From contig JBNGIO010006147.1 in NCBI GenBank assembly GCA_049999805.1, positions 16,864 through 54,712 of the forward strand: 37,849 bases of DNA. The letters are read 5' to 3'. This document shows positions 9,399-37,849 of the stretch, piece after piece (the first letter of the stretch is position 1; each line of letters begins with the position of its first letter). The translations under genes and the position numbers were made by a program. The stretch is from Folioceros fuciformis. Lineage: Eukaryota. The notes beneath the pieces were generated by a model. The model ran no database searches. It saw nothing but the letters and a program-made list of their open reading frames with translations, and was not told the origin of the DNA.

Positions 9399-12007
9399 TT
9401 ATGCGAATTGCTCCGTAGAGAGCTCCTTGGTAAAAACATCTGCAGGGTTCTGACTGGTGTGAACTTTGACAAGCTGTACCCTCTTGTCTTCCAACACCTC
9501 TCGAATAAAGTGATACTTCACTTCCACATGTTTGGTCTTCGCGTGAAACACTAGATTCTTCGCCAATTGGATAGCACTCTGGCTATCACAGTGCAACACT
9601 GGCAGCTCAACCTTGATCCCCAAATCTCCCACTAAACGAGCAAGGCACATGGCTTCCTTGCAAGCCTCAGTCGCTGCAACATACTCAGCCTCTGTGGTAG
9701 ATAGTGTTATGCACGATTGCAAACGAGATCACGGTGAGACTGCCCCTTTAGTGCACATGAAGACATAACCTGATGTGGACCTCTTTTTGTCCATATCCCT
9801 GCATAATCAGCATCCGTATATCCCACTACAAATGCATCTTCACTACAAAAACGTAAGCACAAAGCTCTCGTACCATTTAAGTACCTCATAACTCCTTTCA
9901 CTGCCTCCCAATGCTTCCTGCCAAGGTTTGACATAAACCTGCTAACCACTCCCACTACAAAAGCAATGTCAGGACGTGTAGCAATCATTGCATACATCAA
10001 ACTCTCTATAGCTAATGAGTATGGAACCTTCTCCATTTCAGCTTTGTCCTCCGCAGAACTTGGGCAATCCTTGCTCGAAAGTTTCACCTATGGAGGCAAC
10101 AGAGTACTCAATACCTTCCCCTTCTCCATGTTGAAACGTTGAAGCACCTTGTTAATGTATTCAGTCTGAGACAAGTAAAGCAAATGCTTATGTCTGTCTC
10201 GACGAATACGCATGCCAAGAATATGGCTTGCCTCTCCCAAGTCTATCACGTCAAAGCGAGCATTCAACTTTGACTTCAACGCGAAAATCTCATCACTGTT
10301 AGTCCCAGGAATCAGCGTATCATCCACATAGAGGACCAGAATGAGCAAGCTTCCATCCTTAGCTTGCTTCGTATAGAGGCAATGATCCTCCTCGCTACGC
10401 TTGTAGCCTTGAGAAAGCATAAATGAGTGGAACTTGTAATACCACTCCCTGGGTGCGTGTTTCAAAATGTGAAGGCTCTTCTTTAACTTGCACACCAGAT
10501 TCTCTTTGCCCTTCTCAATGAAACCCTCTAGTTGCTGGATGTATACCTCTTCATGGAGATCACCATGCAGAAATGCCGACTTCACATCCATCTGGACAAG
10601 TTCCATGTCATTCCTCGCAACCAGACCAAGAACACATCGCAAGGTGGTCATTTTGACAACTGGTGAGAAAATCTCATCAAAGTCAATACCTTGCTGTTGC
10701 TTAAAACCTTTAGCAACCAATCGTGCCTTGTACTTGGGTTTGCCATAATCGGGTATGTCCTTAATCTTATACACCCATTTGCATGGCAACGCCTTCTTGC
10801 CCCTAGGCAACCGAACCAACTCCCAAGTTTGGTTCTTATGGAGCGAATCCATCTGTGACTACATTGCCTTCTCCCACTTGTCCTTGTAAGTCACTGACAT
10901 GGCCTTTTGATAACAAGAGGGCTCCCAATAGTCCGTCAGCATGATATAATCAAGAGATGCAACATACCTGTCAGGAGGCCGTGAGATCCTTCCTAACCTA
11001 CGAAGCACTAGAGCCTTGACCGGAGCTGGTTGCACTCTCTCCTCTTGTACAAGTGGAGGAACTTGTTCCTGCACATCACGACGTTCAACCTGTGCGGGAC
11101 GGTCAAGTCCATCTTCTTGAAAGACCACCCGTCGCACCTCCACGGTTGGAGTAGGCTTCTTGTGCAACTTGGTCTCATTGAAGAACATGTCATTGCTGCG
11201 AAGCACCCTCTTGGCCTCGGGATCCCATAGACGGTATCCCATCTCACCAGATTCACCATAGCCAAGAAAAATACATTTTCTTGACTTGGGAGCCAACTTG
11301 TCCCGAAACTCCTTCGGAACATGGTGGTATGCCTCGTAGCCAAACACTCATAGATGCTTGTATGACGGCTTCTTTCCAGACCACATCTGCTCTGGAACCT
11401 GCTCATCCACAACCCTATTAGGAGATCTGTTAATAAGATGCACTGCAGTAACCACTCCTTCTGCCCAAAATCCGTTAGGCAATCCAGAGTTTGACAACAA
11501 ACTACGCATCCTCTCCTCGATGGTCCTATTCATCCGTTCAGCCACACTATTCTGGGGAGGAGTATACAAGGCAGTCAATTCTCTCTTGATTCCCTTGGAA
11601 TCACAGAATGACTGGAAAGCCTTTGAAACATACTCTCCCCCATTGTCTGTCCTTAAACACTTCAGTCGGAGGCCAGACTAATTCTCCACAAGGGTGAGGA
11701 ATTTCTGAAACACTGTCAGAACATCATCCTTTTTCTTCAAAGGATAAACCCACACCTTGCGTGAGAAATCATCTATGAAAGTGACAAAATAGGATGCACT
11801 GCCTAACGATACAGCGGGCATAGGTCCACAAACGTCACTGTGAACCAATTCAAGAGGTTTACTTTTGTGTTTACCTCTTGCTCCATTTGGCGATTTTGTC
11901 TGTTTCCCATACAAACAGTGCTCACATACGGAGAAATTGGAGAAGTTAAAAGCAGGGACGTAACCAAAATGAGATAAGATCTTCATTCCTTTTTGAGACA
12001 TATGTGC
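9399..12007 (-). pseudogene. Copia pol remnant (GAG-pre-integrase, integrase, RT, RNase H)
   Basis: ORF pieces 11678-12007, 11348-11578, 10859-11347, 10088-10852, 9707-10087 and 9399-9722, separated by stops and one frameshift. Confidence 0.93.
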
Positions 12008-12373
12008 TGGGCTCCCCGGGCCTAGTAGAGCCCTTGGCAATGCTGGCCGGATCTTGGCCGCGCCCCTGCCCGTGCACGCTGCCGAGCGCCCTATGTGCCC
12101 GGGGCACCCTATGCGCCCACTGCGCCCGCGGCGCCTGTGTTCGCCCGTCCTCCCACGGCTTGGCGCCTGGGGCCTGGTGTCGCCCCGCTCCTGGAGCACA
12201 CCCTACATTCCTTGCTTTGCAACCTTGCATGGCAAGGTTGGAGATTGTTGCACCCCAGCACCGGGTCGCCGCACACTGCTCCCAGTGGTTCTCTCACTCC
12301 GAAGCCTTGCGCACCATGTCCGCAGCACCTGCAGCCATCACCAATCTTGCTCCACACTTGCTCTGATACCACT

Positions 12374-15185: not shown

Positions 15186-15517
15186 GTATCAACCAACCTG
15201 GTTAAGTTGATCACTACAAGACAGTCAAACATTGTAAATCTACATAAAACATTATTCAAGCTAGATTAGAAAGTTACCCAAATTCTTAGATCTAGCCATA
15301 GAACAATTAAGAATAGAAATGACGCAATAGCTGTAGATGGCAACCTACCCAATGTCCAGTGTATGGAGAACATGTTGTCCAATCTTGCGGTGAGTGGGGA
15401 ATTATTAGGCCTAGATTCCGATTAGAATGAGTATAGAAACTCCGGATGTGGTCACCTCCACTCAGGACATACAGACACATCAAATCTCACCGACCACACA
15501 TTCTCCCTCCATCAAAC

Positions 15518-16871
15518 ATGGCTGCAGCAAAAACCACAACAATCAACAACACAATTAAGATTGATTTCAAAGAAAGACAGATTTTCAGGCACAGATTATG
15601 ATATCTGGGCAATGCATATGCAATCCATACTTGAGGACAATGACCTCTGGGCGCTCATTGATAGCACCTATGCCAAACCTGTGACAACCGGGATAAATCC
15701 AGCTTCAGCAGTTGATGTTGCAGCCTGGGAGAAGACCGATAGGAGAGCACACAATGTGATCTTATCCGGACTTGATAAGACCACGGCTCATCATGTCACA
15801 GGGGCTAGAGATGCAACCACAGCATGGGCTAACCAATGTACCACTTGCAGATGGGTGAACATGAAGCTGTCTTCGAGCACATTAAAAAGTTTAGGGCAGC
15901 ACGGGCTCGATTGTCATCTTGCGGGATGACGTTGACTAAGGCTCAAGCAGCCATAGCTTTGCTGAGTTCTCTTCCCGAGAGTTATCGTACCTTCAAGACA
16001 ACACACAACGGAGTCATAAAACAAGCGCAGCTTGCAGCCAAGAAAGGGCAAGGTTCATATTTCACCACATCAGAATTACTCGGGGCTCTTATGGAGGAAG
16101 AAGCCACACGTGGCTTGGCTGGTACATCCAATTCTATAACCCAAGGTCAAGCTCTCTTTGTAGTTGGTGGCAAAGGGAGAGGACAAGGACGCGGTCAAGG
16201 CTGTCCTCCTTATAATAATAGGCCGTCTTTCTCATCTTTAGCACCTAGGAGGAAAGGAGCTTGCCATTGGCGCCAAGTAGAAGGACATTACGAGAAAGAA
16301 TGTCGTAAGAAAAGGGTCTGAAGAGCCTAGGAGAGGAGTACCGCCTTCAGCTAATATTACACAACAGAAATCACAAGTTCTCTTAGCTGTTTACCTTGTC
16401 ACCTCAAAGAATGACACCAATAGTTGGTGCATTGATAGTGGGGCTTCAACTCATATTTGTCATACTAGATCCTTCTTTTCATCATATCACCCTCGTGAAC
16501 CAGGCAATTGTGAATTGCTGGGTGATGACAATGGCTTGCAAGTCCAAGAAAGAGGCACCGTGCTGTTGTCTTGTGAGGAAAGTAGGAGTTTGAAATTAGA
16601 GGATGTCTACCATGTCCCTCAAATGTCAAGGAATCTAGTTTCAGTTCGTAGACTTACGCTGTCAAATCAGTACAATATTTACTTTACTCGAGACACCTGT
16701 ATGATCCAGGACACAGTCAGTTCCTTTGATGCATCATGTCTTTGCATTGGTCGCCCATTCAATGACTTATACAAAATAGATCTGCCCCCAAGATATGTCC
16801 TGAACATTGCAAACTTGACTCAACCCAAGCAATCAGTGCTATGGCAGCATAGGCTTGCACATGTAAAGTAA
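15518..16871 (+). mobile_element. Copia gag-protease remnant, truncated at the GAG-pre-integrase region
   Basis: FSGTDYDIWA..MQSIL...DLW, LLSSLPESY, degenerate zinc knuckle CHWRQVEGHYEKEC, protease WCIDSGASTHIC, LEDVYHVP..SRNLVSV, LWQHRLAHV; frameshifts. Confidence 0.9.
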
Positions 16872-17694
16872 ATTCACGTAATTCCCAGAATGGCGCGTGG
16901 ACACTTCGAAGGAAAAACTCCCACATTCCGGTGCGCATTCCTATGGTGGGCCACGCTCCAAATGTCCCTCAAAATGGCACGACGGAAAGGATTTTAATAA
17001 TATTTTTTTAGATTAGCAATTTCAAAGGAAGAATAGTTGGCACAGATTTGGTTACAAAAGAAGTTGTAACCTCTCTAGACCTGTATTGTTATCACCTCGT
17101 GGCCCCTGGACGTGATCCAGGCTATGCCTATCTTGATTTTTGCTTCTACTTCAGGTTGTGCCTGTCTTGAATCTCACTTCTGCTTTAGCCTGTACCTGTC
17201 TTGGCTCTGGCTCTAGTTTGCAAGTTCATCGTATGTATAAATCGATGTCCCATTCTACGCAAAAATTGTGGGGTGGCTTATTGTCGACACCAAAGTCCCA
17301 TATGGCAGGCAACGTTGTTCGTAGGCAGGAATGATTCCTAGGACAGTGGCTTACGAGACTTCCTGTGTTGTGTACTACAAGATATTCATGAACTCTAAAG
17401 GCCTGACAAAATATTCCGTGCTGGGAGCAGACTTTGACTGGGAGTCCTTACATACCCTCTTCCTATATTTGCTTGGAGGATATTGCTGTCTTGTGCGGCA
17501 CATATCGCTGGTGCATGCTAGAAGCGACAGTTGATGTGTCCTTCTGGATGAAAGCCCTGGCCCAGGCGAGCCCGCGTGATAAGATTCAGCTGGATAACAG
17601 AGCATGCCAAACATTGTCTGTAAGCAGTGTTCTCATACCGATGCCTGGGAATCAATTTCCAAGAAACCTGGAGACCTGGGACCATCGATATCAA

Positions 17695-17975
17695 TGTACC
17701 GAGCTGCCCTCGTCTGAGCACAGCTCACCTCATTCAAGTCGTGCCCAGCGATCCTGATGGACAATGACCAAGGGCTTGTTAGTCTCCAAGACCTGCTGAT
17801 CCCGTTGATTGCGAACGCACACGTCTCGAAACGCTCCTCCGCAAGGTTCAGCTTGTCATTGCAATGCGCAAGCACCTGATAGATCTGCTTGCAAGAAAGG
17901 GCATGCGGGGACCTGACCCTCAGTCAATGTCAGGCATCCATGAGCGCCAAAGCTGGCTTTCTACCCTTGGAGTCT
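17695..17975 (-). repeat. Dispersed block B, copy 1, containing a probable pseudo-exon (17729-17875)
   Basis: Aligns with 36045-36330 (e.g. CAGTCAATGTCAGsCATCCATGAGCGCCAAAGCTG). Minus-strand AG acceptor and GTGAG donor are present in both copies. Confidence 0.75.
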
Positions 17976-20900
17976 CGCTGACCATTTTGGTAACATACAT
18001 ACACCCCTACAGCAGTGCTGCAAAACTCTCCGAAATTCAAACATCACAGCATTCAAGTAACTCAAAGGATACTGAACCCATTACATAGCATAGCGAGAAA
18101 CCAAAGTGGACAGTCAAGCACAAAGATGTGGTGCGATTACCCGACTTCTACGGAGGTTGATTCTGGGTTGTGTTGACTGCATATGCTCGCGTCGCGGTAA
18201 ATCCGTTAATCTCATAAACCCCTTCTGTCCCTGCTCCTGACATCCGTGGTCTACACAAGCTTCCAGGCTCCAGAACTCCTTTATCGAGTCGGCAAGTCTA
18301 TCATAAACAGGCACCTCCGCCGGACACAATCAACAAACCGTGTACCTCCTAAACGCTCCTCCAGTGCAATGAAAAAACGTGGAGGGGGGTCAATTTCTTT
18401 TGAAATTCGGCATCCGCAAGTGTATCGGCAGCAACTTCCAGGTCGCAGCATAACTGAGTGCCAGCCCTCCGATGAACGAAAGCCATGGCAGCAGTCAGAG
18501 ATCTCGTGGTTGATGCACTCTGCTCAAAGTCATACGCACTGCCTTGTCGAGCAGCTTCAGTCAACTGAAGACCGGGATATGCTGGGAACCCTCACAAGAC
18601 TTGTGAGCCTCTAGCAGAACCCCACCTAGTCCCATTCGGTTTCCATTTGCGCAGTGTTCGTTGCCTCCCTCCATCAGGTTCTCATATTTGCCACAATAGG
18701 TAGCTGGTCCACGGGGTAACCTTATCATGTTCGTAGGGCCATCGTGTATCTGATACAAGTCTCCCATGCCCATCAGCATCTGCCTGCTCAATCATGTACG
18801 TCATCCTCCACATGAATGAAGCTCGAGGAGCCAGTATCAATCCGGCCACGATAGTTTTTGATGGTGTAACTTCTGTTTTGTGGGGGGCATTTGTACAGGC
18901 AGGGGTCTGACCAGACCATCAGTGACCATTCTAAGACGAGTGTCGAGCCGGCCAAACAGAACAGAAGTGCAGGCCAGCCGACAAAGCATCCATGTAAGCT
19001 TGGAGGTTGCTTGCTTTGAAGAGTGGGTTGGTGTGCCTTCCTCGACAGAGTGTGCGCTGTGAGACCACCTGCCCGCCTTGTCACGTTCCAAGAGCTCCTT
19101 TGCCCTCCAACTTCTGCACCACCGACTCAAGTCCCTCCCACCGGCAGTTTCCAGAAGTGGAAAGCAACTGCTGTGAAGGGAACTGACGCCACCGATAAGT
19201 GCTTTGATTCATCCTACATAAAGTACTGGCAAGCAGAAGCCTGCTGCGCCGTTGCACCGTCGATCTTCATGCATCGTTGTCGAGAAGGGTCCCACCCTGT
19301 AAACCAAAGAGAGCGGTTTGTTCCTGCAAGACCGGTGGCAGAGAGGGACGAGGGACGAGACAAGATAATCCACTAACAGATCACCTGCCACTTCCCCTTA
19401 AGCAGGTAACTGTGAAACAAATGTGTTGGCTCTTGTGCATACCGCACCCCATAAGGAAAACTTCACACAATTTACTCCACTGCCCAAAACCCGCTGTCTC
19501 TAACGCACCAATCAAAACGCAATTGATGAAGGAACAAAAGCATCTCAGGTGAGTCATGCCCCTCACACCGTTGCCAGCATCCCGGCTCTGTCATACCCCG
19601 CATATCCTTGCCACGCCCAAACTGCCGAATGCCGACTAGCCAGCACCCATCCCCTGTGAGAGCTAAAAATGACAGTGCACAGCTGCATGCAGCACTGCCA
19701 ATGCGAGGTCACCAGGCTCTCCTGCTTCAATCTGACGATACGAGCGACACCATCGGTTGCAAAATATCAACCCACGACAAACCCGTGGTCATAACTTGAT
19801 GCGGGCCCTGACAACCAGACCTGATCCACAGAAGCGGCCTCACCACCATGTTCCTGAATCCTCGCCCCTATTAGCATTCGTCACTCTAAACGGATGTCCT
19901 GCCCTATTCGATGAAAAATCGGCAATAGACGGAGTTACGTAATTCGCGAAAAGAAAAGAGAGGGAGTCCGTTTGGTTGGAAACCTAAACGGTCAGGAAAC
20001 CGACGCCTCCTTGTCCGGGAAGATTTGTGCGCTGAGGGAAAACGTATCAGGGGCCGGTAGGATACCAGCCTTTGATGCTTGGTTGCTGCAAGCGTTCCAT
20101 CCGGTGGGCAACAGGAGCGGGGTACCAGGAGGCAGAAGACGCGCGTGGGATCGGGAACAGAGCTTGAGGGACGTGAGCCAGAGGACTTCCGGGGAATCCT
20201 TCACGGCCTCAGGAGGAAATTGCTGGCTGATGCCTGGGGCCTGGACGAGAGTCCAGTGGTCAAGCTCTTGGAGAGGCAGAGGAGTGCCGGCATTTTGATT
20301 TCATCAGGCTTCCGGAATTGACCAAAGGGAAGATACTCTCGACGATCCGAAGTAGGTCGATCCCGATTTTCGCCAGTACCTTGCAACCGAAGAGCTACGA
20401 GCTCGTATACAAAGCTCGTTAGGGATCCACTCCGCTGATGCTCGCCTCCGCGGTTCTGGTTTCTTCTACAGAGTCAACAGGATCATGCTGCATATCCTCG
20501 AGGAAATGGACCTGGGCCTGGCTTACAGTCGTCTCCAGAGCGCGGCTGCTACTCAAAACCCATCCACAAATATGATTCTCCAACTCTTGAGCCCAAGCGG
20601 TCCAGCTAGCTTTCTTACTCAAGTTGTGTCCTCTAGCCTGTTGCAGATGCCACGGGATCGCGGCTCTCCAGCTGGACATTAAACCGTGTATATTCGCGGG
20701 CGGGGGAAGTTGATATGCTTATCGGCATTAACAACGAGTGGCAGCTTGTGGACAGGGGAGTGCGGGAAGGTGAAGACCACGTGGTTCCTTGTATTTTATG
20801 CCCGCAGCTCAGGCTGGAACAATATTTTGTGGAATGGATCAGCTTCTACACCACCGACCACTGTAGTCTGCTGAACTAGCCCAGAGATGAACTTGATTGC

Positions 20901-22409
20901 GTCTGATGGTGCCGATTGTCTGCATTTGCATGCCCCATGCCCATTGAGGCTCCTACAGGAAAGATCCCTGACGGGTTGTGTTGTGGAGTCTCCTAGCTGA
21001 CGGACGTGGCCGTGGCAGCTTTCAGAATTGATGCAAAAAGAATCAGGTTAAAATCTAGGGACTCGGGGCGGAGGGGGAGCAGATGGCTGTTTTGCTGCCA
21101 GATGCAGGTCTCCGCCACCGGAGGGAGGCTTCCTTCGCCAGCAGGCTCCTCGAACGGGGAGTCAAGGTCTTAGGAGCCGTCACTGTGCAGAGGAGTGTCA
21201 GCCATCTAGGCACCTGCAACGTGATCGACAACAAGGATTGGTTTGCGGGGGGGAAGGGTTTGTGACCATGGGGTTTTTCACATTTGCCTGCAGTTGAGGA
21301 GCTGGAGGATCTGCTGTACCACTGTCACTCGATCGCTGCACTGGCCTCCAGGAACTTCTATCAGGTTCATGTTCACCACCTTCTTCTAACTCCACGGTGC
21401 TAAAGCTCTCTCCTTGTTAATTTGCGATGAGCTCTGCTTCCAGCTGCGGGCGTTGATACCTGTAGCTCACAACCTGTGTGCAGTTGCCTTTAAAAGGAGA
21501 CATAGCTCAGTTCAACTTGTTCTACTGTATTGGATTCGAATCAAAGTAATTCAACAAGTCCTGGTACAGGTGGCCATTTGATCGCTTTTGAGTTCTTCCT
21601 TCTTGTATCATGCACGTAGGCAGCAAAGTGGTCCGCTCGTAATTCAGGCATACCGGGCCAGCATGCTGTGTTATGTTAGTCTTGGGGACTTTCAATTCAA
21701 GTATTTCTCTAGAAAAGAAAACTTCTGGATCAGACTGTGTGGAGGCATGTTCGTCTGTGGCTTGTGATTGGGCACGCTCCTCACCATAGCGGGGCTGGGG
21801 CTCTCATCATGCTAAGCTTATCTTCTTGTTCCATAGCTATTATTGTGCGGCGTAGTAGATTTCTGTGTGTGGACGCCAATTTGATGTGGTGGTCTCCGGC
21901 GCTCTTGCTGTGATAAACTTAATCCTCAGTGTGTCTCACAAGACGTGCCGAATGCGTGAAGGTATAAACTCTACAAGCGGTTGGATTCAGAAATAGTTTT
22001 CATACCAATTGTTGGATGCTTGCAAAATCAGAGAAGGAGAGCGAACAGAACCTGGCAACGAAATCTAAGGCTAGCACCGGACGGCCTTGCGCATGGGTAC
22101 TTGTAATGGATACACGTACCTAGTGTATGAAAGCATCGAATGTAGATATACATATAGCCCAGCACTGCAAGCATAATGTGAAATGCCCGTCTGTTACCCA
22201 GGATGCGCTTAGCGTCGACAAAAGCTTGCGAGGTCTTACCCCTCGACCCAGGTCCAGTACCACCCGAACTCACTTAGAATGGAGAGGACCTGGCTCGACC
22301 ATTGCCATCGTAATTACCCTTACGTCCTCACACGCGAAGGCACTGACATGCTGACATGCTCGGCAGGAGAAATCTCGCCACGTCAGGTAGTTGTCCTCTG
22401 AGACTGTCT

Positions 22410-22433
22410 GGCCTCTCCCTCTTTTCCTTACAG
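22410..22433 (+). promoter_or_regulatory. Probable 3' splice acceptor of a 5'-UTR intron of the F-box gene
   Basis: Pyrimidine tract CCTCTCCCTCTTTTCCTTACAG ending 194 nt upstream of the ATG. Confidence 0.45.
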
Positions 22434-22626
22434 ACCTAGAAAAAGACTCTCACACCAATCCCTAGAGGCTCACTTCCTGTCTTCCTCTTGCGATCGCCCT
22501 CCCTTGAGGTCTTCCTGCGCTCCCGCTGCTCCTTGAGCACTTTCTGCCAAGTCTGGCCCAAGTTTTCGTTGCTAGTGGCCAGTCCTTCCCTGTGTTGTCT
22601 AGTTGCTGGTAGCGCTTTGGTTAGCC

Positions 22627-25600
22627 ATGTCTGGGCAGGAGTCCTTCGTCTGCGCCGGCCACGATGATACACTTTGGACCCCGAAGACTCTACCAGTGCC
22701 CTACGTTCCCGCTCATGGCGATAGCGTGTATGGAACTTCCTCCCAAGAGACTAATATTGCTTATGGCCATCAAGAGGTAGTAGCGCTGCTGGACGACCCG
22801 ATGAACATGGTGGAGGGTCAGAGTCGTTTTGTGACCATGGAGAGACTCTCACAGGGTGAGAGTCCTTTTGTGCCAATAGAGCTAGCCAGCAATTCGTCTG
22901 ATGCTCTTTCTCATTCTGTCCATGCTACCTATCCTCCTTCATCCTCTTGGGGGTCTGGTATTGTCATGGCCCAAGAGTTGTTAGAGTCCTCAGTCTTTCC
23001 CGAGCATCCCCTTCTTATGGACTACATTCCATATGCAAGGTTCGGCTCTAGTAGCCACTTGGATGTCGTCCCTATCCCTACCCTGCACACATACATAACT
23101 CATGTGCAGGGACCCCTACCTTTGCGTCTAGAGTCTGCCTCTTCCATTGCCTCAGAGTCTTTTCTTCCTCTTTTATTGTCAGAAGCCCAAGAGCCAGGTA
23201 TCCCCTTCCCTCGGCCTCACAACTCTGCTCATGCTCACCAGCCGTGTGCCCTTTCCGATCATGGTCTGCAAACATATGCCCCTGCTGATCATGGTCTCCA
23301 GCCATATTCCCTTGCTGATCATGCTCTCTTGCGATACACCCCTGCTGATCATGCTCTCCAGTCATATGCCCCTGGTAATCACGCTCTTCTGCCATACACC
23401 CCCACTGATCATCCTCTTCCGCAATATGCTCCTGTTGACCATGCTGTCCAGCCATATGCCCCTCCTGATCATGGTCCCCAACCATATTCGCCTGCTGATC
23501 ATGGTCTCCAGCCATATTCCCTTGATGATCATGCTCTCTTGCCATACGCCCTGGCTGATCATGATCTTCAGCCATATGACCCTGCCAATCAGGCTCTCCT
23601 GCCATACGCCCCAGCTGATCAAGCTCTCCAGCCATATGCCCCTGCTGATCATGGTCTCCAACCATATTCGCCTGCTGATCATGGTCTCCTGCCATATTCC
23701 CTTGCTGATCATGCTCTCCTGCCATACGCCCCTGCTGATCATGGTCTCCAACCATATTCGCCTGTTGATCATGGTCTCCTGCCATATTCCCTTGCTGATC
23801 ATGCTCTCCAGCCACACGCCCCTGTTGATCATGCTCTCCAGCCATATGCCCCTGCTGATCATGCTCTCCTGCCACACGCCCCTGTTCATCATGCTTTCCA
23901 GCCATATGCCCCTGCTGATTATGTTCTCCAGCCATGTCCCCCTGCTGATCATGGTCTCCAACCATACTCGCCTGCTAGTCATGGTCTCCAGCCATATTCC
24001 CTTGCTGATCATGCTTTCCTGCCATACGCCCCTGCTGATCATGGTCTCCTGCCATACGCCCCTGCTGATCATGGTCTCCTGCCATACACCCCTGCTGATC
24101 ATGGTCTCCAGTCATATGCCCCTGCTGACCATGGTCTACAACCATATTCCCTTGCTGGTCATGCTCTCCTGCTATACGCCCCTGTCGATCAAGCTCTCCT
24201 GCCATACACCCCTGCTGATCATGCTCTCCAGCCATATGCCCTTGCTGACCATGGTCTCCAGCCGTATGCCCCTGCTGACCATGGTCTCCAACCATATTCC
24301 CTTGCTGACCATGGTCTCCAACCATATTCCCTTGCTGATCATGCTCTCCTGCCATACACCCCTGCTGATCGTGCTCTTCAGCCATATGCCCCTGTCGATC
24401 ATGCTCTCCTGCCATACTCCCCTGCTGATCATGCTCTCCAGCCATATGCTCCTCCTGATGGTCTCCGGACATATGCCCCTCTTCAAGCTCTCGAGCCAAA
24501 TGCAGTTGCTCATCATGCTCTCCAGCGATATGCCCCTGCTGATCATGGTCTCCAGACAGATGCCCCTCTTCTAGCTCTCGAGCCATATGCCCCTGCTGTA
24601 GCTCTTCAGCCATCTGTTCTAGCCCTCGAGCCATATGCCCCTGCTGTAGCTCTCCAGCCATCTGTTCTAGCTCTCGAGCCACATGTCCCTGCTCTACCTC
24701 TTGAGTTTGATGTCCCTGGGCTACCTGTTGAGCAATATGCTCCTGACCTATCTCCTGAGCCATATGTCCCTGGTCTTCGTCTTGAGAAATATGCTCCTNN
24801 NNNNNNNNCTCCTGAGCCATATGTCCCTGGTCTTCGTCTTGAGAAATATGCTCCTGACCTAGCTCCTGAGCCATATGTCCCTGGTCTTCGTTTTGAGCAA
24901 TATGCTCCTGACCTAGCTCCTGAGCCATATGTCCCTGGTCTTCGTCTTGAGCAATATGCTCCTGATCTAGCTGTTGAGCTAGATGTGCCTACTCTACCTC
25001 TAGAGCCATACGCTCCTGATCTAGCTCTCGATCCATATGCAGCTGCTCACCATGGTCCTCCCAGGCCCCTGCGCATGATCGCACCTGAACCGCTGGCCTT
25101 GCACCACTTGCGGAATGTCATCTATGATTACATCGGTGGACGCCCCAGGCCGGGATTGGTGCGAAGACAACAGGTGATCGTTAAGGGCCGATTCTTGTAT
25201 GCAGGAGAGAGCGAGGAGGAGATGCCGCAATGGGATGTGCACCATGAGGCGTGGGGGCTCCCCACCAACATGGCCCAACTCGTCATCGACGTGGAGATGC
25301 CGCACACGCTGGAGTTTCCTTCGTGGTTCGAGGTCTTCTGGCTCCCCCGGTCCTTACACCGTCTCCGCGAGATGATGGAGGAAATCCATCTCAGACTTTG
25401 GCACTATCTGCCACTCCAGGACCATACACTTGCCAACCAGGAGGGGACCTGCATCGAAGTGTTCCAAAACACCCAGAACATGCCAATGACCCAGGATAGG
25501 CCGTCCCTGCTTCCGCGCCTCCCAAGGGAAGTACTGCTGGAGATCTTCTGCCGCTTGCCGCTACGGTGTATCTTCAGCTCCGTCCGGCGTCTGAGCAGAG

Positions 25601-26805
25601 AGTGGCACCGTGTGATCTGGTGCAGGGAGTTCCGCGCCCTGCAGAGCCTGTACGCGCCGCAAGAGAACCTGCTCCTGGAGTTATCTTTGAACGACGTTCT
25701 CTACGAGCTGCCCGACGGCCCAAGTATCATGAACTCGGCGGGGCACGGGCTGGCCTCCATCTTCTACCCTGCCTGCAATGGAAACCCGGCAACCTGGCGC
25801 AATCTGGTGTGTGTTCTGCCCGGGTCCGTGCAAATAGTAGCCTTCAGCCGGGGCCTGGTATGCGCGATGCCCCTTCCGGGAATGGAGGATCCCGGCCCTC
25901 CCAGTGTCTACATGTGCGATCCTCTCTCTGGTACTGGCTCCTGGATTCAGTCCCCTCACGACTTGTGCACCGGATCACGGCAATCCCAGGTCTTCCACGT
26001 CGTGGGTGTGGTGGCGGAACCCAACGGCCCGGACTATCGGATACTAGGCATCCACGGCCACCAAGGGCCTGCGCAGATTTACGACTCTCGCACCGGCGTG
26101 TGGACCATCACCCAAGAATCCGTGCCGCACTCAGCAGCGCTTCGTCCGGGTCAGGGAATCACCGTCGACGTCAGCAACTCGAGACAGTGCTTTGGAAGGG
26201 GAACGGAGTACAGGGGGTGCATGTACGTGCTGGAGTGGTTGCAGAGGCCTGGCCTGCATCTGTTAGGCTACCCGTGGGGGCATCATCTTGGGCTGCTCAG
26301 GGCCAATTTGATGTCCGAGGAGCCGTGCACGTGGGCGTACCGAGCGCTGTCCCTGCCCAGGTACGTGCTCACGACGTGCCCGAATCTAGTGGTGGACTGC
26401 TTCAGTCGCCTGCTGCTGTTGACCAGCCTCCGGAAGATGAGGTCAGGCCAGGCCGGGGGGCCCTTCTCCGCTTGCATTTGGAGCCTCGACCCGGAGACCA
26501 TGGCGCTGGAGGAGGTGGCAGAGCTTCCCCAGGCCCTGGTGAAGCAGGAGTGGGAACTGGGTCGCTTTGTGCCCATGTCCTGGTTTGCTGGGGATGACAG
26601 GTTGCTGTACATCACCGTCCGTGGTGTGCACATGCAGCTTGTGTGCAGCCTACTTGCGCCGGAGGTAAAGTGGTGGTGGATGCCAATCAGTGCCCCCATT
26701 CTGCTCTGTCGGGGCCTCGACGGCAATTACGCTGCCATGCCCCTTACCCCTCGCTTCGACGCCTTCATTCCTGAGCCGGACGTTGAGATGGAAGTAGGTG
26801 AGTGA
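22627..26805 (+). CDS. F-box/kelch-type (beta-propeller) protein with a long N-terminal tandem-repeat region; single coding exon, ~1392 aa
   Basis: First ATG at 22627 (the track start at 22603 is TTG). F-box LPREVLLEIFCRLPLRCIFSSVRRLSREWHRVI at ~25510-25640. Downstream motifs typical of plant F-box/kelch-like proteins: VAFSRGLVC, YMCDPL, QIYDSRTGVW, IWSL...EEVAELP, terminal PRFDA. The frame crosses a 10-N gap at 24799-24808. Confidence 0.85.
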   Translation: MSGQESFVCAGHDDTLWTPKTLPVPYVPAHGDSVYGTSSQETNIAYGHQEVVALLDDPMNMVEGQSRFVTMERLSQGESPFVPIELASNSSDALSHSVHATYPPSSSWGSGIVMAQELLESSVFPEHPLLMDYIPYARFGSSSHLDVVPIPTLHTYITHVQGPLPLRLESASSIASESFLPLLLSEAQEPGIPFPRPHNSAHAHQPCALSDHGLQTYAPADHGLQPYSLADHALLRYTPADHALQSYAPGNHALLPYTPTDHPLPQYAPVDHAVQPYAPPDHGPQPYSPADHGLQPYSLDDHALLPYALADHDLQPYDPANQALLPYAPADQALQPYAPADHGLQPYSPADHGLLPYSLADHALLPYAPADHGLQPYSPVDHGLLPYSLADHALQPHAPVDHALQPYAPADHALLPHAPVHHAFQPYAPADYVLQPCPPADHGLQPYSPASHGLQPYSLADHAFLPYAPADHGLLPYAPADHGLLPYTPADHGLQSYAPADHGLQPYSLAGHALLLYAPVDQALLPYTPADHALQPYALADHGLQPYAPADHGLQPYSLADHGLQPYSLADHALLPYTPADRALQPYAPVDHALLPYSPADHALQPYAPPDGLRTYAPLQALEPNAVAHHALQRYAPADHGLQTDAPLLALEPYAPAVALQPSVLALEPYAPAVALQPSVLALEPHVPALPLEFDVPGLPVEQYAPDLSPEPYVPGLRLEKYAPXXXXPEPYVPGLRLEKYAPDLAPEPYVPGLRFEQYAPDLAPEPYVPGLRLEQYAPDLAVELDVPTLPLEPYAPDLALDPYAAAHHGPPRPLRMIAPEPLALHHLRNVIYDYIGGRPRPGLVRRQQVIVKGRFLYAGESEEEMPQWDVHHEAWGLPTNMAQLVIDVEMPHTLEFPSWFEVFWLPRSLHRLREMMEEIHLRLWHYLPLQDHTLANQEGTCIEVFQNTQNMPMTQDRPSLLPRLPREVLLEIFCRLPLRCIFSSVRRLSREWHRVIWCREFRALQSLYAPQENLLLELSLNDVLYELPDGPSIMNSAGHGLASIFYPACNGNPATWRNLVCVLPGSVQIVAFSRGLVCAMPLPGMEDPGPPSVYMCDPLSGTGSWIQSPHDLCTGSRQSQVFHVVGVVAEPNGPDYRILGIHGHQGPAQIYDSRTGVWTITQESVPHSAALRPGQGITVDVSNSRQCFGRGTEYRGCMYVLEWLQRPGLHLLGYPWGHHLGLLRANLMSEEPCTWAYRALSLPRYVLTTCPNLVVDCFSRLLLLTSLRKMRSGQAGGPFSACIWSLDPETMALEEVAELPQALVKQEWELGRFVPMSWFAGDDRLLYITVRGVHMQLVCSLLAPEVKWWWMPISAPILLCRGLDGNYAAMPLTPRFDAFIPEPDVEMEVGE
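23251..24450 (+). repeat. Coding minisatellite: 40 x 30 bp (consensus peptide PADH[GA]L[QL]PY[AS])
   Basis: Exact 30-bp periodicity with no indels over 1200 bp; 40 units counted in the translation. Confidence 0.97.
24451..25050 (+). repeat. Derived coding repeats: 48-bp (LALEPYAPAVALQPSV) and 54-bp (PDLAPEPYVPGLRLEQYA) units
   Basis: Two 16-aa units and at least four 18-aa units; copy number uncertain because of the N gap. Confidence 0.9.
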
Positions 26806-27800
26806 AAAGGGAATTAGGTTCTGCTGATGCACGTACGCGTGGTCTACAGACAAGATAGCTCTACGGTTTCCTTTGTGGTCGTCAGAGTTGATCTCGTAAC
26901 TTGGGTAAGGAAATCTTAGGCTTCGAGACTCTTTTTTCTTGTGTAAAATATTTCGATAAGAACACAAAGCCAGATCCTTCACTGCGGGCTGCAGCTGTTC
27001 TAGAGCGGCATCCACATGCATTCAGATGGACAGTGCCCTGGAGCTCCAAAAACGGAGCTAATAGATGCTGAAGGGCTCAGGCTGCAAGAAACACAAGCGC
27101 GACGGAACGTTGATTGCTTGAAAAAGTTTCATGACCTCTGTGGGAAGCCCAATGTACCGTGCTATGAGGAGGGTTCTGAATGGACTTCTGAATTGCTTTA
27201 TTTGCCAGGAGGTAGAAAATTGCCCTTTTAGGAGGCAGCAGAAGGGAAATCTCGTGATGTCCACCACTCAGGCTGACGTCGCATTTGGTATCTTAGCTTC
27301 AGCTTCCACTACGCTATTTATAAGAGACAATCTCTTGCTAGGAGACGACTATGTATATTTGCTTCGTTGCCATTTCCCCTAAAACAACTGGGAGCTTGCT
27401 GTTCCTGCTGCAGCACGTCCAAGAAGCCCGCTTTCCAATGTCCTCAGCAGCTCTAACAACGCGCCCGCAACACGTAGTGCCCAACTTTGCTAAAACATCT
27501 AGTAGCTTCAACTTTGTCATATACATGGGCCCTCAGTGGATGCTGAGGCCACGATACCTTTAGCCGTCGTCACCCTATGGACACGGAAACAAGCTTTTGT
27601 TACACTCCTGTAGTGCTCACCACCTGCCCCCTGACATTGCCAAGCTGTCACAGCAACGATAGTGAGAGGGAAGTTCATAAACCATGATTTCCTCGTATGG
27701 AATGATGATTTTTCGCCCAAGCTGAAGTGAGTTCGGACGCCTCTCGTGGGCGCGTATCCCACGCCTGTTCAACTCGTCTGTTATTTCCTCAATCGTAACC

Positions 27801-29575
27801 TGTTATAGTAGATTACGCACTCAGCATGTCTAGAGGGCACTTATACGAGACGCATTAATTTACGTTTATTTAATTGGTTAGGGTTTCGCACCTCATCAGT
27901 CACGACGGTTCGCCTTGCACCATAATTCTATCTGTTACTTTGCATAAACTCGTGAAGGTATCAGAACAATGGGCGCTTAGCACGAGAATGAATGACAAAT
28001 GCACTGCGAGGCACATTCTGCACTGTGGCAGGAGAGATGCCAAAAGCATGTGCATCGCCGGGACACTATGATGGCCAAGAAGGTCATCAACTTACTTCGT
28101 GCAGAATCTTTGCTGTATTTCTGCCCGCGATGGCCCGTAGGAGGCGCTATCGCTCTATCAACGCCTTGATCGCAGGTGGCCGTCTACCAGGGCTAGCCGA
28201 AAGGATTACCCAGAATCCGAATAATTTCAGACCCGTTTGGCAGCATACAGCCACAATCTTCACCGCGCGTCCGATAAACTCCACTAATTCCCTCTGCGAA
28301 TTGCAAGCCATTGTTAATGAATTGGCAAACCGAACAAGATCGCGTTTTCACTATCTTGGATTGCTCAAAACCTCGAGAGGATCATTGAACTTGTTCTTAA
28401 GATTGTGACCCGCCTTGATAGGCCACGAGAAGAAATTCAGGTTCTTCATTACTTGGATCATCCTCCCATGGGTTTGTGACCCAAGAATTTGGAAACGTCG
28501 TGTCGGTTGGTGTCCGACGACAAAAGTCACAACAATCTTCTCTATAGTTGGTAACAATCTTCCCTATAGTTGGTAGCACTATGCAGCGACAATAGCAAAT
28601 TACCTGAGGCATCTTGGCCAACTGAACAATGGGAACTGTGGTGCATAATTACAATGTGGAAATCAAGGATGGAGACTATTTTAACGGGTAGGACTACAAC
28701 ACTTGGGTTGTCCGAATGACTTCCATCCTCAACCAGGCTGGCCTCATGGGTGTGGTGGATGGCACTGATCCAAAAGTGGTCCTGGATGCTACGGCCTCAA
28801 ATCAAGCGGTCATTGATGCATGAAGGAAGAAAGATAAAAAGGCAAGGAAACTGATCCTTGCTGGCCTTGAACGGCCCATGCTACACCAAGTAGATGGGAC
28901 TACCACCTCAAAGCAAGCTTGGACTCAACTTGCTAATCTCTACCAAGCTGAGGACTTGGGGACCATGGTGGCAGCAACTAAGACTCTCTTTTCTCTACCG
29001 ATGAGAGAGTCAGACACTGTTCAAGGCCACATCACACAATTTAGAATAGCTCGCCCCAAGATGGCAAGTGTAGGCTAGCCTGACGTCTATTAAAGATAGG
29101 GACACCAAGAGCCAAGGCAGAGGTTGAGGGAGTACTAACAGAGGTTCTCTCAGCATTCATCCAAGATAGCACAACAAGGGGGATGCCTAGCACCTCAAGA
29201 TCCAACAGGATAATGTATGTTGGCCGTGGTCAAGGTCGAGGACGCCCTTTTCATCCTCAACAACAAGATAGGTCACACAGCCGTGGTCCACAATCTCCTC
29301 GACCTGCACACAACAACAGACGAAAAACAAGTAATTGTAACTAATGTGGCATCCTAGGCCATTGGGAGAACGAATGTAGAAAAAAAAGGCACATTTTTGC
29401 CTCGGAGAACAAACTCCTCTGCAAACACTATAACCACTGCTAGACAAGCACCTATGATTGCCTCACCAAGCATCATGGCTGTCTATCTTACCCGGAATCA
29501 TATTGACCATCATGGCTGGTACTTGGATTCTTGTGCCTCTGAGCACATATGCCACACTAAATCCTTCTTTGCTAC
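27801..29575 (+). mobile_element. Copia 5' remnant: putative short LTR, degenerate PBS, leader, gag-protease (ATG 28629)
   Basis: TGTTA start at 27801; AGGTATCAGAAC at 27956-27967 (10/12 to the tRNA-iMet PBS); FNG.DYNTW..RM.SIL....L.GVVDG, AWTQLANLY, WYLDSCASEHIC; cut off at 29575 by another repeat. Gag-protease call is firm, LTR bounds are tentative. Confidence 0.75.
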
Positions 29576-31555
29576 TGTGGAACGGAAAAGTTTGGTAATC
29601 GGTCTAGGAAAGTCTAACTTGGTTTCTTTTTGTTCAAAACAGTTCGAAGGGAGGCATGTGGCAGGTAGGTTTTTGGGCAAGTGCCCATGGTAGGTAGTGA
29701 GCGACTGCTGAAGGTTTTTATGGATTTTTTTTAGTTTTTTGGTTAGGATAAGAAGATACCTACGTAGTAGGATGTCTACCTACATACATAGAGAGAGTAC
29801 CTACGTAGGGAAAATGGAAGATACCTACGTAGATAGGGAAGGTACTTATACGGTAGACACCCCACCTACGGCAATGGGGTAGGCAACCTACCTACGAGAG
29901 GAGGGGTAGGGAACCTACCTATGAAGGGAGTAATAGGGAACCTACCTATGAAGGGAGTAACAGGGAACCTACCTACGAAGGGGACATCCTCACCCTACGT
30001 AGGGAAGGAACCTGAAGTTGAAGAATAAGTGTATCCCTTCCCTACCAAACCTATAGATGGTGGTCAAGGGATATCCCAAGAGATCCACATAGAGGAAGGC
30101 ACGGTGGAAGTTCGTGGATCCAAGAGAAGACGAATCCTAATGATGGAGGGGGGCCCAGTAGCTCAACCTTCAGACTCTACCTCCCTTCAGGAGCAGTCCT
30201 AGACACACCTTTTTGGAGAGAGGGACAACGAATCTTCTATGGCAATGCCGACAATCCTAATCTTCAGTGCCGCACACTGCCCTAGCAATTATTGGAAGGA
30301 CTTAGCCTCTTGGTAGGTGTGCGCAGTTAAAGTTGGTGGTGCCTAGTGTGAGAGAAGGGAAGCCCACCACCTACATGTAGGAGAGGGTTCATGTGATCTC
30401 TCTTATAAGGAGGGGCTACACAAAGAAACGAACCACCACATTCTACACTCTTCTCATGGTGAGTTCTCATGCTCAATAGAGCGTAGGAATCTTGTTGTCG
30501 GCTGTGTGCCATCACAGTGCCTGGTTGTGGCTAGAGTTGCAGTGGTCGAAGTGCTTGGCAGAGGGCTCATATTCTTCCATGGGCACCCCTGCAAGTTGCT
30601 TCCCTTGTGAATGGTTGTTGTGCTGTTGTAGGTGTGTGGCAATACCTGTGTGATTGTTGGCTTGAGGGTAGACTCTAGGGAAAGACTCCTTTGAAGTTCT
30701 CGCTAACAAGCACAAGCACGCAACAACCAGCCCAAGGAAAAGCTTGTTGGTCATTGGACATAGGGAGACGAGCAGTTGGATCGTTGTGGAAGGTGTTGTA
30801 AAGAGACTTGTGAGGAAAGGGGTGTTGAGTGTAGGTTCAACGAATCTGTTATGTTGTGTTTCCATGTTGAAGAGTTCTTAGGAGGAGCAAGAGGGTGAAT
30901 TGAGCCTAAAGAACGAATTGAAACTCAGAAAGTTCTAACTTTATGATGAACAAGAGACCTAAAAAATGGACCATACTAGGCTCAAGTATATGGAGACGAG
31001 ACTTTCCATCTTTTGGATTCAATTGGTGGGGATGAAAGCAAAGCAGGTGAGCAAATGGGTGGTGTTCAAGTTTGAGTGAGTGTGGAATCGGTGTTCAATT
31101 TTGGGATACGGAATGGGCTCCTATTGTATTGTTTTGAGTGCTTTGCCCAACAAGTGGATTGGTTTGTTTCTTCTTTTCTCTTTTGTGGCTCTTTAGTCCC
31201 GTTTTGTTTCCCTTGGTCTTTGGTGGTCAGCTTATGCGTTAGTCATACCTACGCGTATCGTAGGTATGAAAAGTCAATGTCTAACCAGCTTTCACTTGAT
31301 TATTCTAGTATTTGTGTCAGGAGGAGTGAACCTATTAAGACTGTCGGTCTAATTTTTGTAGGTTGACCTACGGCCATCAAGGGTGTCTTTTTGTGAGTGC
31401 TTGGTAGTGTGTTTTGTCAGTCCTACAGGTCAGTAGGAGAATCAAATCCTAGGTCTAACAGGATAATAAATGTTAAGTGTCAGTTAATGCCAGTTAAGTG
31501 CCCGTGGATAATAAACCTATGCGGCGGGTAGGCTAGACAATAAAGGGTCGTCACG
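29576..31555 (+). mobile_element. Long LTR-like segment (probably Ty3/Gypsy-derived), inserted into the Copia protease region
   Basis: Starts with TG exactly where Copia homology stops; 5' part is homologous to 12796-13190; CCTAC-rich; ends GGGTCGTCACG, similar to Gypsy LTR termini (GGGTCGTyACA). No TSD found, so the right end is tentative. Confidence 0.55.
29881..29983 (+). repeat. 27-bp tandem repeat (~4 units)
   Basis: AGGGAACCTACCTAyGAAGGGAGTAAy units. Confidence 0.85.
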
Positions 31556-31897
31556 AACATAAGGAAATTAAAGGAGATTTTGGGACATGTATGAGCATGC
31601 ATAGTGGAAGTAAGCGATGAGGAGTACACTGATGAAAATCACTCCTTGCTCTCAGATGCAAAGTAGTATAATGCAATGAATGAAAGAGTAAAGTACAAGC
31701 CTTTATATAGACTAAGTGGTTGAGGTGAATAGATGGTAATAACAATATGTTGTTGTAACCACTAAGTTGTTGTAACTAATAACAACTAACTACCTAGAGC
31801 AACTAAATAGGTAACTACTTAATGCCCTTGATGATAAAATAATGTTTAAGTGATGTGGCCCTAATGAATAGTGCTCTAAACTAGATATATTTCATCA
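31556..31897 (-). repeat. Possible solo LTR in reverse orientation
   Basis: Composition resembles the 9039 LTR (TTTATATAG box, AACTA-rich tract, ends CA); no partner or TSD found. Confidence 0.3.
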
Positions 31898-33640
31898 TAC
31901 ACATGTGTAGACTACTAGTACCTTCACAATGGGTGCAATTACAAGGCATACTCTCACCTTCCGCTCGTTCTTCAACGTTGAATGGCTGTCTACCTACCTC
32001 AACTCTTGCGAAAACAGAAGGAGCGGAGATTGACTAAAAGACGAGGTGTCTTGTTGTTGTAAGGGCAAGCTTCTTATGTATGCAGTGACAATTTCAAAGG
32101 CCAAGGAGCACAAGAAGACTGATTTCTTGGTGTGTGCAAGAGAGGTGGAGTCATGCGGCTTTGGTGTTTTGGGAAATTGGTAGATGCCTATATAAGATGG
32201 TCAAGGCTACCAAGACAACCCACGTTGACAGAATGAGAAGGCTAGAAGGAGAAGTGGCAAGGGGACCCCTTGCATTTAATTGTCTTGGAGGCTCAATGGA
32301 CAGAGAATCTTCCTCTGCAAAGTGATTTAGACCTAGCCAAGCTTCTTGCAGTGGCATCCAAGGAGTGAAGCACCCTTTCTATGAAGAAATCAACACCTCA
32401 CCTTTCCACAACTCCAAGAGACAACAATAAGGAGATTAGGTAGAGGATAGCAACGAGAGGACAAGATTTTCCTGTGCAATAGCTAGAGGAGGAGGATAAC
32501 TCGGTTGTGAGTGACAATTAAATCTCCAGATATAGAAATAGCCGATTGCCTCCTAGTTAGATGGGATACTTACCAGATTATTTTTTGGTTTGCTTTAATT
32601 ACATCATTGGCGCCTAGGAACCTAGCGTAGAATAGGTAAAAGGCTAGGAGTATAAGATTGGCTGAGATTGCTCATCTCTGTGTGGATTTCAGGTGTTGTG
32701 AAGGAGCCTAGTGTGGCGTTTCCGGACTTGGCTGAGGGCCCTTTTCTGTGCTGATTTTTGGAGGATTCAGTCCTTCATCTTGAGGAAATTGTCACTCTTG
32801 TTCTTCACTCTAGACCTCTCACAAGTTGGGCTGTTAGTTTTTGCCATCGTAAGTAGCAACTCGCTTATGGGGACGGACCAGAGAAACCTACAACAACAAT
32901 GGGTGTGGCCACTTAGCAAGGGTCCTTAGGGTTTTGGGGTCTCGAATGCCACAATGAGATCACCTAAATTCCTATCCTAAGGATGAAAGAGCCATCAAAC
33001 CCAATACCCCTTTTGTGATTTCAACCACTTGGCCTTGCAAAAACAGCAAAATCCCTATTCTCATTTTCAAGGCTTCACAAAGAACGTTGATCCCCCTTAT
33101 TTATATCATCCCAATTCACTTTATTCAACATACTTGCACATGCTAAGCATATAGTGGAGCTTCCCTCATTGAAAGGAAGGTGGACCTGGAAAATGTTAAA
33201 CATGTCCATGAGAAACTTTCTCATTGAAAATGGATAACAAAGTGAAGTTCTTCATACTCATAAGGTAAATACAACATCTCTCTCCAACTCTTATATATTT
33301 TAAATCTAAAAATTTAATAAAATAACTCTTTTAGAAACTTTAAAACAGCAGCTAGATATTTGAATTAGGGAAGGTAAAAGATTGTGGAACGAGAAGGTAG
33401 GAACAATACTCACCTTCTTCCTCCTTCTAAATTATGATATCTTAGGTGCTATTAGTAGTTTTTAGGTTCATGCAGCTTAAGAGGATAGCCCTTAGTGACT
33501 TGGTCAACTTTAAATTTCGTGGTTTCTTTTACTTGTTTAGGGGCACATAGTTTCCCATCTTGTTTTTCCATCTGTGGAATCTGCACATGTACATAGCCAT
33601 ATACATATGCATATCTACATGTCTGGATTACATGTGAATA

Positions 33641-36583: not shown

Positions 36584-37849
36584 TGGTATCAGAGCTGCAC
36601 GGAACATGATCCAGAAAAATGGCTGGCCCTAAACAAATTTGGAAACCAAGGCAACATGCCAATAGGTTGAAACCCCAGAAAAATTGCTCACAGCAACAGG
36701 TCGCCATCACACCTCGCTCTCCCTGCCAGAAATGCAAGGAGATGAGGCCGGCCATACACAAGTTAGAGCGAGCTGCCATGAACAGCCATAAAGAAACAAT
36801 AGAACTGAAGAAACATATCAACTACCTAGATACTATCATCAGAGCAATCGTCTTCAAGTAGCTTGGGACCTTGACTCCCCTAAGAGGCAGGATGGCCCTC
36901 CCTGCTACACAAGTTAGGCAATATCAGATAGAAAAATTAACCCACCTAAATTATGCGACATGGTCCATAAGGGTGGAATCCCTTCTCAAAAGGTTGACAT
37001 TATGGCCTGTGGTGGACGGCTCGGAAGCCAGACCAGCCCAAGGTCATGCAGATGAACCTACTTGGATTGTGAAGGACGTCTCTGCCCACGCGGAGCTTAT
37101 CCTGCACATAGGAGACAGAATTTTATCCACCGTTAGGCGAGAGCCTAGCGCCAAATCCCTGTGGGACAAGCTAGCAACATCACTGCAGGAGGTGAGTTTA
37201 CCCTCACAACTTCTTGGCCTCCATCAAGCTCAAGGACGGAGCTTCAATCTCGGATTTCCTGGACACCTGGGAAAAGGCCCTAGACGAAGCTATCTCCACA
37301 GGACTTATCATAAAGGAGGAACAGCAGGTTACCCACCTATTGATGGCTCTCCCAAGATCGTGGAGATCATTTGTGTCTACAATCGCTAACCAGGCCACCA
37401 CCCAAAATCCACTAACCTTACCACATCTTCTGATCAAAATTCGCAATGAAGATGTCTTGATTGCAGAGGACAACTCCTCTCCTTCAGCTCTTTTCGCAGG
37501 CGGACGCAGAAACCCTAGATTCAAAACTGGATCCAGGTCGAATTTCAGTTCTGCTCCAGGACCTAACCGGCCACCACCACCAAACCCCAATCACAGGGAT
37601 AAAATTTGCCACTATAGCTCCAAGCGAGGGCATATAGCCCCGGACTGCAGGAAGAAACAGCGTGATAAAGCCGCTGGCATTTATAACCCACCAGGAAGTA
37701 CTTCTAGCACATCTGCTGTAGCTACCACTTCCAAGAATGCTTACCTATTTTCTGCTATCCCTGCCTTGGCTGCAAACTCCATTCTTCCAAATCAGTGGCT
37801 ACTTGATTCAGGAGCCACGGAACACATGACACCAAGAAAAGAATGGTTC
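36584..37849 (+). mobile_element. Copia element 5' part (PBS, leader, gag, start of protease), continues beyond the window; 5' LTR ends at 36583, start not determined
   Basis: ...GACA then TGGTATCAGAGC PBS (36584-36595); gag from ATG 36892 (IEKLTHLNYATWSIRVESLL...LWPVVDG), frameshift near 37215, LLMALPRSW, degenerate knuckle CHYSSKRGHIAPDC, protease WLLDSGATEHM. Confidence 0.93.
36619..36861 (+). CDS. 80-aa ORF between the PBS and gag of the Copia element (CxxC plus coiled-coil-like tail), function unknown
   Basis: AAAAATGG start context; PCQKCKEM then IHKLERAAMNSHKETIELKKHINYLDTII. Confidence 0.35.
   Translation: MAGPKQIWKPRQHANRLKPQKNCSQQQVAITPRSPCQKCKEMRPAIHKLERAAMNSHKETIELKKHINYLDTIIRAIVFK

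Follow-up and report, generated by a model that had tools for sequence, protein, structure and literature searches.

A long reading frame in Folioceros fuciformis that joins an in-frame minisatellite array to a diverged F-box/kelch-type C-terminus

We analyzed a 37,849-nucleotide stretch of Folioceros fuciformis DNA (GenBank assembly GCA_049999805.1, contig JBNGIO010006147.1, positions 16,864 to 54,712 of the forward strand; hereafter the window, numbered from its first nucleotide), in which one long open reading frame (ORF) places an array of tandem repeats upstream of, and in frame with, an F-box and a propeller-type C-terminal part, as the original prediction from the same sequence had proposed. 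The stop-to-stop frame extends over 22603-26805 on the plus strand, with the first ATG at 22627, and the coding region from that ATG to the stop is indeed uninterrupted. It is also, as had been claimed, the sole long intact ORF of the window: there are 23 stop-to-stop frames of at least 150 codons, and the longest that does not overlap this ORF encodes only 256 amino acids and is a copia reverse transcriptase fragment. From the N-terminus to the C-terminus, the predicted protein comprises a leader, 40 units of 30 nucleotides each, about 20 derived units, a linker, the F-box and the propeller-type C-terminus, with the following coordinates (GC3 stands for the G+C content of third codon positions):

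22627..26805, plus strand: the whole ORF (1,392 codons and the stop codon), preceded by an in-frame stop whose last nucleotide is 22602
22627..23247, plus strand: unique leader of 207 codons (residues 1-207), without a Pfam match or any remnant of the repeat unit
23248..24447, plus strand: coding-frame minisatellite of 40 in-register 30-nucleotide units, consensus APADHALQPY (residues 208-607)
24448..25040, plus strand: derived repeats, with units of 27, 30 and 21 nucleotides that are seen as periods of 48 and 54 (residues 608-804)
24799..24808, no strand: assembly gap of 10 N inside the 54-nucleotide repeats, with both flanks in repeat register
25042..25509, plus strand: unique linker (residues 806-961), with no Pfam family and with high GC3 as in the F-box part
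25510..25620, plus strand: F-box (residues 962-998, LPREVLLEIFCRLP...SREW), Pfam PF00646
25621..26802, plus strand: region after the F-box, assigned by homology to the kelch/FBA-type beta-propellers, with lineage-specific insertions and full-length homology to At5g15710-like proteins

The 40 ten-residue units noticed at the outset follow each other in strict 30-nucleotide register and are free of indels. They represent 34 distinct peptide versions, in which D4, H5, L7, P9 and Y10 are retained in 34-37 of the 40 units and positions 1, 2, 3, 6 and 8 are variable; only 2 of the 400 residues are Lys or Arg. Tandem Repeats Finder reports a period of 30 with 46.7 copies at 23225-24613 (78% matches, 1% indels), a period of 48 with 2.8 copies at 24569-24702 and a period of 54 with 6.1 copies at 24710-25039. 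When the 30-nucleotide consensus is searched for with up to three mismatches, all 18 matches in the window fall within the array, compared to 0 in 100 shuffles. Mean identity between units is 0.78-0.83 at lags 1-12, and neither a higher-order repeat structure nor an age gradient was seen in the 30-nucleotide array. The assembly gap in the derived repeats is bridged by none of the contig pieces listed from the sequencing runs; given that its flanks are in repeat register, the missing bases would number 7 + 54k, which leaves a remainder of 1 on division by three, as do the 10 N, so that closure of the gap in register would preserve the frame.

The leader had been described as low-complexity, a characterization that did not hold up: it is not repetitive, it combines a mixed amino acid composition (S 14%, P 11%, L 10%) with an acidic isoelectric point of 4.9, and 0 of 616 positions reach 8 bits for the 30-nucleotide unit. 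The possibility that the leader consists of decayed repeats was rejected for lack of both a unit signal and a 30-nucleotide autocorrelation. The ESM Atlas yielded no usable match for the leader, and its best score for the array was 0.89, below the 0.9 level taken as a lead and produced by unrelated repeat proteins; a word-indexed search with the leader plus the array (724 amino acids; candidates of 398-1,267 amino acids only) found no relative.

The F-box call made from the sequence is borne out by Pfam: PF00646 matches the isolated C-terminal 440 amino acids with 21.1 bits, above the cut-off of 20.5, and the LP...W core aligns with those of the relatives described below. When the whole 1,392-residue protein is scanned, the F-box falls below the cut-off (PF00646, 18.1 bits; PF12937, 19.8 bits against a cut-off of 24.3). 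The linker that precedes it contains in-frame Met codons at residues 817 (nucleotide 25075), 866, 882, 891, 916, 917, 952 and 954.

The F-box is followed by about 395 residues. A HMMER scan of the last 500 residues of the protein against 1.84 billion representative proteins (expectation value, E, of 0.001 or less) produced 3 matches, P0003 (476 amino acids, E = 1.4e-8), P0004 (391 amino acids, E = 2.1e-4) and P0002, and none of these 3 bears such an array; P0002 matches the window protein in the F-boxes only. No match was returned by a word-indexed search with the same C-terminal 500 residues. BLASTP aligns the window protein with P0003 at 25% identity over 434 columns (E = 9e-17), collinearly from the F-box to the last residues. 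Both P0003 and P0004 show an F-box plus Kelch_1 or KIB1-4 propeller matches; in P0004, these are Kelch_1 with 24.1 bits (cut-off 20.1) and the KIB1-4 propeller with 28.1 bits (cut-off 27.4). A profile search retrieved 6 proteins, including one from the moss Physcomitrium patens that is named F-box/kelch-repeat protein At5g15710 at NCBI. Alignment of six moss sequences with the 440 residues of the window protein using hhalign gave a probability of 96.9% (E = 1.4e-10, 326 columns), and the family profile matches solved kelch propellers, down to E = 6.7e-11. The proposed succession of an F-box and a kelch/FBA-type propeller is thus supported by the collinear homology to P0003 and by the profile alignment, though the window protein has no kelch match of its own. 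The C-terminus is most probably a diverged F-box/kelch-type adaptor, with a propeller fold predicted by homology, and the nearest matches suggest that the At5g15710-like group is the closest to it.

That the array is open is, by itself, weak evidence of a maintained frame, because frame +2 is also open and is immune to stops created by single changes. The 30-nucleotide array contains 0, 0, 37, 4, 37 and 1 stops in frames +1, +2, +3, -1, -2 and -3, respectively; frame +2 remains open for 480 codons across the array, and no single-base change of the consensus creates a stop in it. The original prediction held that the alternative frames over the array are broken or end, which is not the case for +2 but is correct for the frames with stops, such as +3 and -2. 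In frame +1, 3 of the 90 single-base changes that the consensus can undergo give a stop and none of these is present; under independent mutation, with 152 mismatches in 1,200 nucleotides, a mean of 4.4 stops is expected and the probability of finding none is about 0.01, with the most conservative count (49 of the 90 variant types are seen) giving P = 0.09. All unit lengths (30, 27 and 21 nucleotides), as well as the periods of 48 and 54, are divisible by three, and no indel is found in 1,200 nucleotides of units that have diverged by about 20% from one another.

Outside the array, the reading frame of the leader is free of stops and the other frames contain 7-12 each (0, 9, 7, 11, 12 and 7 in the same order); any frame was open in only 23 of 20,000 shuffles of the leader, the corresponding counts being 625 for the linker and 2,155 for 24448-24798, again out of 20,000. 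The derived repeats contain 0, 11, 19, 5, 1 and 13 stops, with the reading frame alone stop-free. The openness of the leader, the stop-free derived repeats, the periods that are multiples of three and the missing array stops favour a long frame that extends beyond what chance would produce.

Additional evidence comes from the DNA sequencing runs X1 and X2, which represent one sample and the contigs of which cover all 30 bins. These contigs contain a second version of the F-box/propeller part (25516-26739) that differs from the window by about 9% (29 of 325 bases at 25902-26226) and is found at depths of 23.3 and 8.37 in X1 and X2, respectively, against 10.9 and 8.28 for the exact version; the second version may represent an allele, homeologue or paralogue. 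The 40 differences that are listed, out of 59, are distributed over codon positions 1, 2 and 3 as 16, 6 and 18, and alter 38 codons, 16 of them silently, without creating a new stop. This is modest evidence that the C-terminal part is under coding constraint, with the ratio of nonsynonymous to synonymous substitution rates (dN/dS) roughly estimated at 0.4. The leader is covered by only one contig, which is identical to the window, and no diverged version of it at 90% or greater likeness was found among the X1 and X2 contigs.

A separate observation concerns 26499-26739, where all X1 contigs and those of X3 deviate from the window and X2 has both forms, which implies that the assembly and the sequenced sample differ locally. 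None of the six sequencing runs is registered as RNA. Run X3, for which RNA is only a guess, yielded 15 small contig pieces; the 8 of these that are listed fall between 23228 and 26781 at depths of 2.4-4.4, and 22300-23104 and 26808-27100 have no X3 coverage. Neither the coverage nor its holes are taken as evidence on expression.

The surroundings of the ORF consist of decayed copia-type elements in plant-like DNA rich in transposable elements (TEs), and all the TE fragments are broken into frames of at most 256 amino acids:

4589-5317: RVT_1 fragment
10088-12202, minus strand: RVT_2, integrase and gag fragments, copia-type
15426-16871, 28824-29693 and 36862-37849, plus strand: gag and Pol_BBD fragments, copia-type

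No long terminal repeat or inverted repeat of at least 40 nucleotides brackets the gene within 17000-33000. Among the frames of at least 70 amino acids in 17000-22600, none was recognised; two of these were scanned and match no Pfam family. The ORF lies in a G+C-richer block at 19000-27000 (0.50-0.59, compared to 0.35-0.48 in the flanks) that starts about 3.5 kb upstream of the gene. Three tandem 27-nucleotide units (82-100% identity) are present at 29880-29982, just 3' of a copia gag/Pol_BBD fragment, and a second 10-N assembly gap is located at 6297-6306.

We read this locus, with about even confidence, as a plant F-box/kelch family member that is lineage-specific and strongly diverged and has been extended in the 5' direction by a coding minisatellite, such that both parts belong to one protein. 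Under this interpretation, the coding region would have gained about 960 codons upstream, namely, the leader, the 40-unit minisatellite, some 20 shortened units and the linker. Judging from the motif, the F-box would dock the protein on SKP1 within an SCF ubiquitin ligase, with the substrate bound by the propeller, which would have roughly six blades. The N-terminal 800 or so residues would form an acidic, probably disordered tail that is rich in Pro, Ala, Leu, His, Asp and Tyr, almost devoid of Lys and Arg, and presents about 60 copies of the short D-H...L-x-P-Y motif. Such a tail would be kept in frame, with its sequence only loosely constrained, and its most likely role would be to tune the site or the mode of action of the adaptor, through self-association or through multivalent docking of low affinity. 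The roles originally suggested for the array, namely, condensate formation, His-Asp metal binding and a decoy function, are likewise conjectural.

Several observations weigh against this interpretation. The first group concerns the extension itself. GC3 of the leader (0.44-0.54) equals that of the flanking DNA (0.48-0.50), that of the repeats is 0.20-0.38, and only from about residue 801 does it climb to 0.58-0.86 (about 0.76 after the repeats), indicating that the extension and the F-box part differ either in history or in coding regime; the low GC3 of the array can reflect a founder effect, that is, amplification of one unit, an explanation that does not apply to the leader. Mismatches between the units and the consensus number 38, 63 and 51 at codon positions 1, 2 and 3, without a third-position excess, and by our own arithmetic on these counts, dN/dS among the units is about 0.7, so most unit residues carry no sign of selection. 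None of the libraries searched contains a relative of the leader or the array, and a start at Met 817 or at Met 952/954 would yield a protein of 576 or about 440 residues, respectively, that is, ordinary F-box proteins.

The second group concerns the C-terminal part and its setting. No Pfam kelch or propeller family is found in the window's own 440 amino acids, even at E of 10 or less, and a phmmer search of the PDB with the same sequence gave one chance-level match only (E = 2.1). The AlphaFold2 model built from 8 sequences has 22 strands after the F-box helices but is of low confidence (predicted local distance difference test, pLDDT, 49.9; predicted template-modelling score, pTM, 0.53), and the single-sequence model, with a pLDDT of 34, is unusable. 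In the Foldseek comparison, F-box-propeller proteins (Cdc4, beta-TrCP and Fbw7) and kelch domains occupy the top ranks, with template-modelling scores of just 0.19-0.37 by query length. In the second version from the sequencing runs, the ratio of silent to replacement changes, 16:22 in frame, contrasts weakly with those in the shifted frames (13:24 and 5:33). Finally, the gene sits among decayed copia elements, and plant F-box loci that are confined to one lineage often lack expression and evolve near-neutrally under relaxed selection, a mode of evolution denoted 'genomic drift' in the accessible part of the source (PMC3030570).

Much of the first group would be expected if the gene were short, with the coding sequence beginning at an internal Met (817, or 952/954) and encoding a 440-576-residue F-box/kelch protein, and with the leader and the array representing a 5' untranslated region, a promoter-proximal minisatellite or a separate upstream frame. 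Met 817 sits exactly at the rise of GC3 from 0.2-0.5 to about 0.76 just past the repeats, the relatives measure 389-476 residues and have 40-95 residues ahead of the F-box, and both the fruitless searches for relatives of the leader and array and the absence of a third-position excess in the unit variation fit this scenario. However, it leaves unaccounted for a leader that is open in the same frame as the rest far beyond chance, whichever frame is allowed in the shuffles, derived repeats that are open in the reading frame only, changes of unit length that are all multiples of three, and an array with zero stops in +1 compared to about 4.4 expected under independent mutation. On balance, we regard a short gene as possible but not probable. 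Should the array turn out to be untranslated, the locus would illustrate how a repeat unit that lacks stops can extend a frame misleadingly far ahead of an ordinary F-box gene that evolves rapidly.

Rather unlikely, in our estimate, is a drifting locus, that is, a recent F-box copy, specific to the lineage and surrounded by TE-rich DNA, that has little or no expression, owes its intactness to its young age alone, and carries a neutrally expanded minisatellite. The copia fragments on both sides, the presence of one or more additional diverged versions in the DNA sample of X1 and X2 and the near-neutral constraint on the unit residues are all compatible with drift, as is the presence, in plant F-box families, of many unexpressed lineage-specific loci under relaxed selection, according to the part of the source that is accessible (PMC3030570). 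Nevertheless, the units are about 20% apart at every lag from 1 to 12, which indicates that the array is not young, and yet contain neither an indel nor a stop; furthermore, only 6 of the 40 listed differences of the second version affect codon position 2, and none creates a stop.

A stronger form of the single-protein interpretation, which we consider improbable, is that selection acts on the translated array as a module, in which case the roughly 60 D-H...P-Y motifs might mediate pH-dependent or metal-dependent self-assembly through His and Asp, or multivalent partner capture, and so bring the ligase into a condensate or to a surface; this would amount to an F-box/kelch architecture without a described counterpart. 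A TE-derived origin, in which the array is a transposon-borne minisatellite and the F-box part a gene fragment captured by a mobile element, would suit the TE-rich surroundings but appears very improbable, given that no terminal direct or inverted repeat of at least 40 nucleotides was detected in the interval scanned around the gene, that the repeat unit occurs nowhere else in the window and that, relative to P0003, nothing is missing from the F-box/propeller part between the F-box and the C-terminus.

In plant F-box/kelch proteins (FBKs), the F-box is normally located near the N-terminus. The window protein has about 960 extra N-terminal residues, compared to the 40-95 residues that precede the F-box in its At5g15710-like relatives. 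The 74 FBKs of wheat are 239-643 amino acids long, with PAS/PAC as the only upstream modules, and Arabidopsis has one protein that combines LSM14, an F-box and kelch repeats, as far as the accessible part of the wheat survey goes (PMC8298115). Within these limits, and with no array-bearing relative found, the architecture that seemed unfamiliar from the sequence alone is unusual indeed. No report of an F-box protein with a tandem-repeat N-terminus or a coding minisatellite was found in the literature covered; the supplements of FBK surveys, where odd architectures might be recorded, lie outside this coverage. If the array is translated, the protein would be more than twice as long as the longest FBK of the wheat survey (643 amino acids; PMC8298115, accessible part) and would represent a natural E3 ubiquitin ligase substrate receptor with a very large multivalent disordered tail.

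Among known proteins, the At5g15710-like proteins of land plants (P0004-P0009 from moss, and P0003) share with the window protein the order of an F-box and a kelch/FBA-type propeller, and align collinearly with it from the F-box as far as the W-W-x-P and P-R-L/F-D-A-F motifs of the C-terminus; however, the identity is just 22-30%, and several insertions interrupt the propeller of the window protein. The available portions of the literature mention At5g15710 mainly in reference-gene papers. The FBKs of the ZTL/FKF1/LKP2 type (PAS/LOV, F-box and kelch, in this order) likewise have a module upstream of the F-box, and classes with PAS, an F-box and 4 Kelch repeats are recorded for wheat, rice and Arabidopsis in the accessible part of the survey (PMC8298115). 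In these proteins, however, the upstream module is a folded sensor domain, in contrast to the non-globular tandem array of the window protein, which belongs to no family.

The similarity to self-assembling proline-rich repeat domains, such as that of a zein, is a functional analogy only. Maize gamma-zein, which is secreted and serves for storage, has 8 hexapeptides, and its N-terminal repeat domain ('Zera') likewise consists of short tandem units that contain Pro, His and Leu. The window array shows no homology to it and would present about 60 deca- and nonapeptides on an E3 adaptor of the cytosolic type. The zein domain drives the formation of protein bodies, according to the accessible part of the source (PMC3342223). 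Coding minisatellites of eukaryotic genes form a general class for comparison, the members of which likewise have a unit that is a multiple of three, are in frame and show weak constraint on residues; if translated, the array described here would provide a clean system for studying how coding minisatellites are recruited into regulatory proteins.

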